DNA of 26,296 nt from Minisyncoccia bacterium (GTDB lineage Bacteria > Patescibacteriota > Minisyncoccia > Phycocordibacterales > UBA9973). The position numbers were made by a program, and so were the translations under genes. A model generated the notes under the pieces. It was not told the DNA's origin, ran no database searches, and saw nothing but the letters and a program-made list of their open reading frames with translations. The stretch spans positions 1 to 26,296 of the forward strand of contig JBDHUQ010000001.1 of assembly GCA_039809205.1 (NCBI GenBank), given 5' to 3'. Positions 4,752-17,319 of this stretch are shown here, in pieces (the stretch's first letter is position 1; each line of letters begins with the position of its first letter).

Positions 4752-5039
4752 TTATTGTTGTCTAGGACCTTTGAATCCTCCTTCTTTCTTTTCGCTTGGT
4801 CGAGCAATGTCTACAAAGATTTCTCGCCCATCGAGAGTGCTACCATTTAATTTTTCTACTGCTGCTTGAGCTTCAGCATCAGAAGAAAATTCGACGAAAC
4901 CAAATCCTTTTGATTTGCCAGTCATCTTATCCATGATGATGTTTGCAGAAGTGACTGTTCCAGCACTTGCAAAGTGAGCTGCTAATCCATCATTGTCGGT
5001 TTTGAATGAAACACTACCGACGAAAACTTTATTACTCAT
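4752..5039 (-). CDS. Single-domain RRM (RNP-1) RNA-binding protein
   Basis: RNP2-like KVFVGSV and RNP1 KGFGFVEF; IDGR-like NGSTLDGREIFVDIA; short basic/Gly tail. Confidence 0.95.
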   Translation of the reverse strand: MSNKVFVGSVSFKTDNDGLAAHFASAGTVTSANIIMDKMTGKSKGFGFVEFSSDAEAQAAVEKLNGSTLDGREIFVDIARPSEKKEGGFKGPRQQ

Positions 5040-6315: not shown

Positions 6316-6370
6316 TAAAAAAATACACTAGGCTTTTTATTTAAATTGAGTTACCTAATCCTATTATTTG

Positions 6371-6455
6371 CGGAGGTGGTGAGATTCGAACTCACGGTCC
6401 GGTTAAGGACGACGGTTTAGTAAACCGTTGATTTAAACCACTCATCCACACCTCC
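6371..6455 (-). tRNA. tRNA-Ser with anticodon ACT (CCA not encoded)
   Basis: GGAGGTG/CACCTCC acceptor, G73, D-loop AGTGGTTTA, anticodon arm ACGGT-TTACTAA-ACCGT, long variable arm GTCC-TTAACC-GGAC, T-arm GTGAG-TTCGAAT-CTCAC. Confidence 0.93.
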
Positions 6456-6542
6456 ATTGTGTGGGTAATTACGGTCTCACTATACTACAGGTTAGATTTT
6501 TGTAAAAGTAATACCAAATGTTTTGCTTCGTCTTTATTACAT

Positions 6543-7472
6543 ATGAAGAAGATTGGAATAGTAGCCTTTATTATAAGTATGTTGGTTTTATCACCGGTTG
6601 CTTTAGCACTCGATAATCCTATTTTGCCGGTAAACGAGCCAACAGTTTCAAATATAAGTTCTACAAGTGCAACTGTTTCTGTACCAGAAGCAATACTTAA
6701 AAGTCTTACTCAAGAGCAAGTCTCTAGAATATATTTTGAATATATCCCGACAAACCAAGTTTGTATCATGATATATCCAACACCAGAGAACTGTCTGCCC
6801 AAGAAAACACCCCAGGGTCAAAGTATTGTTAATCTTCAAAATTTAAAACCTAGCACTTCTTATACAGTTAAATATAAAGTAGACAATACCATTAGGTGTA
6901 TTACTGCTCCTTGTCCTGAAAATGGTTTTCAGAGCGCTAGTGTAGAATTCTCAACCTTGTCTCAAGGTAGTGGATATACATTCTCGAAAAATCTATGGTT
7001 TGGTTCTAGAGGGAATGATGTTGTTGCCCTTCAAAATATTTTGAGAGAAAAAGGATACTTCTCATTAAATAGTACTGGCTACTTTGGCATAGCTACACTT
7101 AAGTCAGTAAAATCTTTTCAAAAAAACTATATGCACATCTCTCCAACTGGCTTTGTTGGAACAAAAACTAGAGCTGTTCTCAATACTCTAAGTTACTCTG
7201 TTAATTCTGAAGAGTATTTTGAGGGAACAATCCAAGCTGTCTCAACTGCTTGTTATGCAGACGGTATTTGTAGTGTAACTATTGATGGCAAGATTGTAGT
7301 TACTACTATTGGGTGGACAGGGGGAGCACTGGGTTCTATAAAAGGAACAGTCAACAATATTGGAGACATACAAACTAGCAAGATAGGAGCTCGTGCAAAG
7401 GTTTATGCCAAGAAGACTGCTGACGGATATACTCTCTATGGAAATACAAACTACTATATAGAAGTTTTGTAG
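6543..7472 (+). CDS. Secreted protein with Fn3-like domain, peptidoglycan-binding (PG_binding_1-like) domain and Cys-containing C-terminal domain
   Basis: Signal peptide MKKIGIVAFIISMLVLSPVALA; NLKPSTSYTVKY Fn3 motif; LWFGSRGNDVVALQNIL...TGYFGIATLKSVKSFQ...TGFVGTKTRAVLN peptidoglycan-binding pattern. Confidence 0.85.
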   Translation: MKKIGIVAFIISMLVLSPVALALDNPILPVNEPTVSNISSTSATVSVPEAILKSLTQEQVSRIYFEYIPTNQVCIMIYPTPENCLPKKTPQGQSIVNLQNLKPSTSYTVKYKVDNTIRCITAPCPENGFQSASVEFSTLSQGSGYTFSKNLWFGSRGNDVVALQNILREKGYFSLNSTGYFGIATLKSVKSFQKNYMHISPTGFVGTKTRAVLNTLSYSVNSEEYFEGTIQAVSTACYADGICSVTIDGKIVVTTIGWTGGALGSIKGTVNNIGDIQTSKIGARAKVYAKKTADGYTLYGNTNYYIEVL

Positions 7473-8143
7473 TTTGACCTGGCTCTATACTCATTAACAC
7501 TTTTGTGGGCCAAGCGAGTTGGTTCGGGTAAACGATGTTTCTTTAGGCAGGTTTTAATTATCTCTATTGATTCTTCTAAGCTAATCAAATGTCCAGGCGA
7601 TATAAAAATAGGTTTTACTCCTTTTTTTGATCTTAGGGCTACACCAAGCACTTCTTTAGTAAATTTGTCATACATATAGGAGAAGTCGCCCTTGTTATTG
7701 CCAGGCTCTTTGTAAACACCAGTTAAAACACTCTTGGCACAACCAATAGTAGGCACTCCTAGAACCAATCCAAGATGGGTGGCGATGCCTATGCGTCTCG
7801 GGTGTGCTATACCTACCCCATCTACTACTATGAGATCTGGCTTTGTTTTAAGTTTTTGCCAAGCCTTAAGTAACATTGGTATTTCTCGAAAGGAGAGGAG
7901 TCCTGGTATGTAGGGGAAATTTATCTTATCTTTCACAACACTTTCATCAAGCTTGTTGCATTTAGGATAGGATAAGGTTACAAACCCTGCAAAACCATCT
8001 TTGGCAAAGAGGTTCATGCTGACATCACAGCCGCCTATTAGATTTATCTTCTTTTTTAGAGGTTGAATTTTTACCTTCTTGGATAAATCTTTTTGAAGAG
8101 AAATTGCTTCTTTGGCAGAAAGATTCCAGACTATTTTACTCAT
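7454..8143 (-). CDS. nfi: Endonuclease V (deoxyinosine 3'-endonuclease)
   Basis: IGGCDVS, FPYIPGLLSFREIP, VDGVGIAHPRRIGIATHLG, TIGCAKS, PIFISPGH, RLPEPTRLAH motifs. Confidence 0.96.
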   Translation of the reverse strand: MSKIVWNLSAKEAISLQKDLSKKVKIQPLKKKINLIGGCDVSMNLFAKDGFAGFVTLSYPKCNKLDESVVKDKINFPYIPGLLSFREIPMLLKAWQKLKTKPDLIVVDGVGIAHPRRIGIATHLGLVLGVPTIGCAKSVLTGVYKEPGNNKGDFSYMYDKFTKEVLGVALRSKKGVKPIFISPGHLISLEESIEIIKTCLKKHRLPEPTRLAHKSVNEYRARSNYKTSI

Positions 8144-17227: not shown

Positions 17228-17319
17228 TGGCGGAGACGGAGGGATTCGAACCCTCGAGGGGGTATAAAGCCCCTGCCTCTTTAGCAAAGAGGTACGTTAG
17301 ACCACTCTGACACGTCTCC
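17228..17319 (-). tRNA. tRNA-Ser(GCT), CCA encoded
   Basis: GGAGACG/CGTCTCC acceptor, G73-CCA, anticodon arm CCTCT-TTGCTAA-AGAGG, long variable arm, T-arm GAGGG-TTCGAAT-CCCTC. Confidence 0.96.

Follow-up and report, generated by a model that had tools for sequence, protein, structure and literature searches.

The window, that is, the whole stretch of 26,296 nt from a Minisyncoccia bacterium that was analysed here, contains two tRNA genes according to ARAGORN, both on the minus strand and both for serine, one with the anticodon ACU and one with GCU (Table 1). The former had attracted attention in a preliminary description as an intact tRNA-Ser whose anticodon starts with A, and ARAGORN, which was proposed there as a check, called tRNA-Ser(act) at 6370-6455. 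The Rfam model RF00005 was covered over its full length by 6371-6455 (58.1 bits, E 2.4e-10, gathering score 29). The RNA can be written as GGAGGUG-UG-GAU-GAGUGGUUUAA-AUC-A-ACGGU-UUACUAA-ACCGU-(long variable arm)-GUGAG-UUCGAAU-CUCAC-CACCUCC-G. Its acceptor stem (GGAGGUG/CACCUCC) provides the pairs G1-C72, G2-C71 and A3-U70 next to the discriminator G73, the D loop contains G18 G19, the T loop GUUCGAAUC is canonical, and the helix of the long variable arm (GUCC-UUAAC-GGAC) is kept among relatives via compensatory changes. Position 11-24 is A-U, compared to C-G in E. coli. The anticodon stem ACGGU/ACCGU closes a 7-nt loop UUACUAA, in which A34 corresponds to a T at 6421 on the plus strand. Each of the serine identity elements listed in the preliminary description is thus present, and the loop and the place of the anticodon were borne out by direct reading. 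Judged by covariance model, variable arm, G73, G1-C72/G2-C71 and the elongator features read from the sequence (G18 G19 and the GTTCGAATC T loop), the gene belongs to the class II elongator tRNAs for serine; it does not belong to the GCU isoacceptors, since its anticodon is ACU and invariant in relatives.

Table 1. Coordinates of the features in the window that are treated in the text.
Feature	Position	Strand	Evidence
tRNA-Ser(ACU) gene, class II, 85 nt, no encoded CCA	6371..6455	minus	ARAGORN, Rfam RF00005
Anticodon ACU (A34 = 6421, C35 = 6420, U36 = 6419)	6419..6421	minus	read from sequence
Candidate sigma-70-like promoter: -35 TTTACA (6506-6501), 16-nt spacer, -10 TATAGT (6484-6479)	6479..6506	minus	consensus scan
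Canonical tRNA-Ser(GCU), partner AGY reader	17231..17319 (ARAGORN 17228-17319)	minus	ARAGORN, Rfam (46.5 bits)
Endonuclease V gene	7454..8143	minus	Pfam (246 bits)
95-aa RRM protein	4752..5039	minus	RRM_1 domain (71 bits)

The -10 element that had been proposed for the gene was found again and is paired with a -35 element, so that the candidate promoter matches the consensus at 10 of 12 positions; it lies about 23 nt before the first nucleotide of the tRNA. The same TTTACA-16-TATAGT arrangement is also present upstream of the gene in four relatives (L004, L005, L006 and L026); no intrinsic terminator was found downstream of tRNA-Ser(ACU). Its neighbours encode RecG, an RRM protein, a TMEM175-like channel, a DUF1801 protein and a peptidoglycan-binding protein, and further endonuclease V, RarA/MgsA and an ABC transporter. 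A prophage or a mobile island at this locus was ruled out by these housekeeping neighbours, and the tRNA gene is solitary and not part of an array. The immediate flanks are common to only few relatives, the one general linkage being that to the GCU gene. The RRM protein, which adjoins RecG, consists essentially of one eukaryote-type domain. The endonuclease V gene lies 1 kb from the A34 tRNA, and enzymes of this family cut inosine-containing nucleic acids. As no endonuclease V match was found in the loci of relatives within about 1.5 kb on each side, this adjacency is probably a coincidence.

The GCU gene is located 10.8 kb from the ACU gene, and the two tRNAs are 64% identical. The closest paralog of the ACU tRNA in the genome is Ser(UGA), with 70% identity and an identical acceptor stem. 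A recent duplication of the GCU gene was thereby ruled out as its origin, in agreement with what had been concluded before from the stems. Both the window gene and bacterial tRNA-Ser(GCU) are class II serine tRNAs of the same codon box with G73 and G1-C72/G2-C71/A3-U70, and around the anticodon they have in common the pair U31-A39 as well as U32, U33, A37 and A38. Besides the body, the difference lies in A34 in place of G34: while tRNA-Ser(GCU) reads both AGY codons, the ACU tRNA of the window is expected to read AGU only.

An erroneous base at the anticodon had been considered as a trivial explanation. In DNA contigs of an independent wastewater study, 6370-6438 and 6409-6449 were matched with zero differences, and hence the anticodon at 6419-6421 is identical there. 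Since the same ACT is also carried by 38 other species of the genus, an assembly error was ruled out. At the RNA level, three metatranscriptome runs yielded thin contigs over the gene (depth 3-6, about 3), possibly from carried-over DNA. One thin RNA contig with foreign flanks spans tRNA-Ser(ACU), with no change listed at 6421, and sampled words of the exact 85-nt sequence were found in two RNA libraries.

At 27 loci of the order, of which 26 belong to the genus and one to a different family, the same tRNA body was found with 80-92% identity to the window gene and with ACT in all of them; GCT in this body, which had been suggested as a sign that A34 is not selected, was seen in none. When 37 bacterial copies were aligned, the loop TTACTAA and the pairs that close it were the same in every copy, and 15 of the 27 predicted stem pairs show compensatory changes, the acceptor pair 6:67 occurring as A-U, C-G, G-C and U-A. 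An invariant loop in combination with compensated stems is indicative of selection on the tRNA structure. What is established for tRNA-Ser(ACU) is a genuine, conserved gene on the chromosome, with selection acting on its tRNA structure.

The survey across Patescibacteria that had been proposed gave the following picture. By pattern search tRNA-Ser(ACU) was found in 39 of the 51 species of the genus, which belongs to the Saccharibacteria (CPR), and in 30 of 36 when only high-quality genomes are considered. A looser pattern yielded no extra copies in the remaining 12 species; in one of these (G013) the copy is broken off at a contig end, and in another (G010) neither the ACU nor the GCU pattern was found, which makes its status as a non-carrier uncertain. 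Of the 39 carriers in the genus, 36 have the GCU gene as well, and in those compared the two genes share a contig at a distance of 0.1-23 kb; the GCU pattern was not found in the other three. In the order about 32 of 151 evenly drawn genomes carry a true Ser(ACU), scattered over many families, and in a sample of the phylum about 20 of 401. Most matches to the looser pattern are false, and the true ones were separated by visual inspection or with ARAGORN. A scan of the genomes of all species, which like the scan of viral contigs speaks of presence only and not of frequencies, gave 24 true Ser(ACU) genes among the 120 matches listed, mostly in Saccharibacteria, Paceibacteria, Levybacteria, Magasanikbacteria and other Patescibacteria, with six on MAG contigs labelled as other phyla. 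Carriage is patchy: on a tree of 81 Saccharibacteria genomes its state changes at least 17 times. The genes on the six MAG contigs (L051, L062, L103, L133, L057 and L061) are solitary, and the labels are Gammaproteobacteria, Verrucomicrobiales and Planctomycetaceae; the contigs labelled Gammaproteobacteria have 35-40% G+C and one is 170 kb long. They may represent real carriers outside the CPR or mis-binned or mislabelled contigs.

Among the 119 matches listed for viral contigs 44 proved to be true Ser(ACU), most often as members of phage tRNA arrays. A Saccharibacteria-type Ser(ACU) was noted on a viral contig of 238 kb (L303). The phage arrays that hold Ser(ACU) (L337, L257, L264, L266, L282 and L303) contain other unusual anticodons too: many have tRNA-Ile(UAU), and one has tRNA-Gly(ACC), which according to a 2026 preprint is the only universally absent ANN tRNA of the family boxes. 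The anticodon arm GGTTTACTAAACC recurs on phage bodies and, within the CPR, on two or more different tRNA bodies. In Microgenomates and Levybacteria (L041, L111, L118, L136, L140 and L144) the body of Ser(ACU) is unlike the Saccharibacteria type (L002-L030), has the D arm TCGCATAGTGGCCTAGTGCA and is near to the Ser(UGA)/(GGA) bodies, the anticodon arm GGTTTACTAAACC still being common to both. Different bodies with the same arm hint at several origins or at an exchange of the arm. In one genome of the genus that is 72% complete and in which no ACU gene was found (G016), a tRNA-Ser(UGA) is located on an ACU-type body (L028:1501-1586) with 82% identity to that of the window. It nests among the ACU genes in the tRNA tree, and its alignment with relatives is confined to the tRNA itself plus about 28 nt on the upstream side; tentatively, this looks like a switch of the anticodon within one tRNA body. 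The tRNA gene tree, with its few columns, is weakly supported as regards single versus multiple origin and the direction of any phage transfer.

The assembly to which the window belongs comprises 504 kb in 56 contigs with 37% G+C and is 89.6% complete. Its 31 tRNAs include ACU, GCU, UGA and GGA for serine and GCG, UCG, UCU and CCU for arginine, and ACU is the only A34 anticodon among them. No tRNA-Arg(ACG) is contained in the tRNA set of this 89.6%-complete genome, which has Arg(GCG) instead, in line with the published observation that CPR bacteria lack tRNA-Arg(ACG) and rely on GCG (Shulgina and Eddy 2021, PMC8629427). A search for tadA and tRNA-Arg(TCT) had been recommended in the preliminary description: PF00383 and PF14437 gave no match for a TadA-type deaminase in the 89.6%-complete genome, and tRNA-Arg(UCU) is present. 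A deaminase-domain match is likewise absent in 23 of the 39 carriers of the genus, including genomes that are 98-100% complete, and the other deaminase-domain matches in carriers are mostly ComEB/dCMP-deaminase-like. Because there is no match for a TadA-type deaminase and Arg(GCG) stands in place of ACG, A34 of tRNA-Ser(ACU) probably stays unmodified. Three carriers encode a small protein that is TadA-like or guanine-deaminase-like (L031:1063-1965 in G012, L032:1456-1974 in G025, L033:1342-1842 in G020). It scored 60-84 bits against a TadA model with a cut-off of 150 and is about equally near to guanine deaminase; in the PDB it matches TadA (1wwr) and guanine deaminase (1wkq) best, two enzymes which the sequence cannot separate. 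The tRNA-Arg(ACG) pattern was not found in these three genomes. A gene for SerRS is present in the window's genome, and the identity elements suggest that tRNA-Ser(ACU) is charged with serine. TsaD is present too, with TsaC/Sua5 giving only a sub-threshold match of 17.6 bits; the t6A37 pathway may be incomplete, divergent or unassembled in this 89.6%-complete genome.

Genome-wide we counted 2241 AGT and 1003 AGC codons. AGU thus makes up 69% of AGY, with 61-88% U in the other NNY pairs, and no enrichment of AGU beyond other NNU codons was found in the window's genome. For highly expressed genes we used those for ribosomal proteins, EF-Tu and EF-G in 40 genomes from the genus and 60 from the order, and restricted the codon count to regions that a single reference set matched in tblastn. 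For the preference D, ln(U/C) was taken over the six two-fold boxes whose only readers are G34 tRNAs and was subtracted from ln(AGU/AGC). Mean D was +1.03 in carriers of the genus (n=29, AGU 68% of AGY), +0.63 in carriers of the order (n=24, 64%) and -0.29 in non-carriers of the order (n=25, 45%); the six other two-fold NNY boxes had 47-53% U in all three groups. An ANCOVA gave a carrier effect on AGU preference of +1.11 +/- 0.21 log-odds. As related genomes are not independent, 17 pairs of a carrier and a non-carrier, connected by paths without a common branch, were drawn on a tree of 12 concatenated proteins from 85 genomes. D was higher in the carrier in about 12.8 and lower in 4.2 of the 17 pairs, with a mean difference of +0.81 log-odds (Wilcoxon median p 0.017, 5-95% range over random pairings 0.001-0.06; sign test median p 0.039). 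Five carriers at the level of the order have clearly negative D, and three near-complete non-carriers of the genus still lean to AGU. In highly expressed genes of the window's genome the other two-fold boxes shift to C (log odds ratio -0.44), whereas AGY does not (+0.30), a contrast with z = 2.44 and p = 0.015. The pairs revealed neither a general U/C (U3) shift in carriers (paired p = 0.75) nor an avoidance of AGR relative to CGN (paired p = 0.68), and the AGY share of serine codons was not higher in carriers (p = 0.12, in the opposite direction). Carriers thus prefer AGU in highly expressed genes, a signal that is correlational and of moderate strength. It is nevertheless the signal to be expected from a working AGU reader. 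At conserved alignment columns of carriers AGT stands at serine in 120 cases and AGC in 44, AGA stands at arginine in 654 cases, and AGG is found at arginine columns too. With AGT at serine and AGA at arginine the genetic code of the carriers is standard, and the AGN box is split into AGY for serine and AGR for arginine.

The tRNA is most likely functional, and we consider it rather probable that it is a working elongator tRNA for serine, dedicated to reading the codon AGU by Watson-Crick pairing. Expression, serylation, an unmodified A34 and reading restricted to AGU are each inferred here. Transcription would start from the gene's own promoter. Seryl-tRNA synthetase does not read the anticodon, and it would charge the tRNA via the long variable arm and the acceptor end. 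In a lineage without TadA, A34 would remain a plain adenosine and would pair with U3 of AGU, while AGC would be left to tRNA-Ser(GCU) and AGA/AGG to tRNA-Arg(UCU)/(CCU), so that the code stays standard. That SerRS ignores the anticodon would explain how an A34 isoacceptor could arise for serine with charging retained, in contrast to Phe, Tyr, His, Asn, Asp and Cys; two tentative observations fit the same logic, namely the UGA anticodon on an ACU-type body in G016 and the occurrence of one arm on several bodies. The dedicated AGU decoder is the best reading in view of a published precedent, although with a different tRNA body and in E. coli: an orthogonal tRNA with ACU anticodon read AGU at 9.4% and AGG at 0.36%, AGC and AGA were below detection, and no inosine was seen despite the presence of TadA (Schmitt, Tittle and Fisk 2024, PMC11066159). 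Moreover, Ser-tRNA(ACU), one of two such split-box A34 tRNAs, was tolerated and improved growth when overexpressed in E. coli (bioRxiv 10.64898/2026.05.15.725136). The preliminary description had suggested an AGU decoder in an AT-rich genome. Conservation, the lack of TadA, codon use and the E. coli precedent uphold the decoder, but not the motive, as AT-richness alone is insufficient when the genome-wide AGU share is not above that of other NNY pairs.

A different weighting of the same observations would be that the tRNA works in translation but is kept mainly as a protection in the conflict of phage and host, its loop being a variant that escapes a nuclease or depletion directed at tRNA-Ser(GCU) and moves between phages and CPR bacteria. 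Such an escape from anticodon nucleases had been among the earlier suggestions, and we regard it as unlikely. The true Ser(ACU) genes in phage arrays and the patchy carriage in Saccharibacteria fit this idea, as do the grouping of the viral copy L303 with Saccharibacteria-type genes in the weakly supported tRNA tree and the finding of Ser(ACU) in tRNA arrays that were gained by horizontal transfer (Tran et al. 2015, PMC4758250). In its strongest form, tRNA-Ser(ACU) would be mobile translation hardware traded between phages and CPR bacteria, with an A34 loop that evades a hypothetical nuclease or depletion defence directed at Ser(GCU) and with AGU decoding as a secondary benefit; this would explain the abundance in phage arrays, the patchy distribution and the same anticodon arm on several bodies, and yet we find it doubtful. 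The gene in the window resides among housekeeping genes without prophage or tRNA array, its genus-wide linkage to the GCU gene looks like vertical inheritance, and protection alone would not predict a preference for AGU in highly expressed genes. It also counts against protection that we know of no nuclease that targets tRNA-Ser(GCU). Codon usage that co-varies with carriage speaks likewise against a tolerated, redundant or little-used paralog or a non-translational tRNA, for instance for the synthesis of cell-wall peptides, which we judge to be quite improbable. It is true that tRNA-Ser(GCU) alone can read both AGY codons, that many close relatives do without the ACU gene, and that the anticodon on this body is apparently changeable, as seen from the UGA version in G016. 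However, an invariant loop and compensated stems over dozens of species argue for purifying selection on a translating tRNA, and the elongator features G18 G19 and the T loop are intact. A Fem-type cell-wall tRNA was ruled out: PF02388, the model for a FemAB-type transferase, had no match in the window's genome, and the D and T loops are canonical.

There is little chance that a non-canonical enzyme turns A34 into inosine or some other base, with the tRNA then reading AGU and AGC and perhaps AGA. An engineered split-box Phe-AAA tRNA was converted to I34 in E. coli, three carrier species possess the small TadA-like deaminase without having tRNA-Arg(ACG), and the GCU pattern was not found in three of the 39 carriers. 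Against this, 36 of the 39 carriers have kept the GCU tRNA, neither 23 of the 39 nor the window's genome show a deaminase-domain match, and E. coli TadA left the tRNA with ACU anticodon unmodified (PMC11066159). I34 would also read AGA, which is the commonest arginine codon in the window's genome, stays at conserved arginine positions and is not avoided. With AGA as the commonest arginine codon even slight A34:A misreading would be costly, which weighs against the AGU decoder too. The controlled Arg-to-Ser mistranslation proposed in the preliminary description found no support. As a programmed low-level event at AGA/AGG we hold it to be extremely improbable. Depending on the context, A34 tRNAs can also read further third bases (Boren 1993 and Inagaki 1995, as cited in PMC11066159), and the 0.36% at AGG in E. 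coli points in this direction, but AGA was below detection in the same experiment (PMC11066159), the competing tRNA-Arg(UCU) and tRNA-Arg(CCU) are present, and nothing suggests regulation. In carriers AGA and AGG stand at conserved arginine columns, and AGR codons are used equally in carriers and non-carriers.

With the dedicated AGU decoder as the preferred reading, tRNA-Ser(ACU) is not a new system but a serine isoacceptor with a 'forbidden' wobble base. To our knowledge, textbooks and reviews exclude anticodons starting with A from split codon boxes in all life owing to the risk of misreading. For the Ser-Arg box one review calls A34 'universally missing' (PMC8007984), the tRNA arrays of Acidithiobacillus are noted in passing to include a Ser(ACU) gene (PMC4758250), and our literature search found no paper that links A34 tRNAs to CPR bacteria. 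The array units of Acidithiobacillus (Tran et al. 2015, PMC4758250) and of phages have the ACU anticodon, the arm GGTTTACTAAACC and the class II serine features in common with the window gene. They are, however, part of mobile multi-tRNA arrays and mostly have another D arm and acceptor stem, whereas the window gene is solitary and chromosomal. The tRNA-Thr(AGU) of Mycoplasma, as cited in PMC11066159 and PMC8007984, resembles it in an encoded A34, a reduced genome without the deaminase and a second isoacceptor for the box. The window gene thus matches this class of unmodified A34 tRNAs in having A34 without a matching deaminase, but not in the box: the tRNA-Thr type as cited there serves a four-codon family box in which misreading is harmless, and the window gene a split Ser/Arg box. 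The engineered ACU tRNAs of E. coli have the same anticodon, read AGU specifically, are unmodified and are tolerated or beneficial (PMC11066159; bioRxiv 10.64898/2026.05.15.725136); they are laboratory constructs on other bodies, while the window gene is natural and has been kept over long evolutionary time. TadA-dependent tRNA-Arg(ACG) is alike in that A34 is encoded in a bacterial tRNA gene, but it needs TadA and works as ICG, and the window's genome has neither a match for TadA nor tRNA-Arg(ACG).

A natural and long-conserved tRNA-Ser(ACU) means that the exclusion of A34 from split boxes is not absolute. It provides a natural system for asking how specific an unmodified A34 is, whether the absence of TadA permits such a tRNA, and why serine alone allows it. 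Annotation pipelines and codon-adaptation models that assume reading of AGY by G34 only are wrong for these lineages and for many phages, and natural AGU-specific tRNAs may serve the engineering of codon reassignment.
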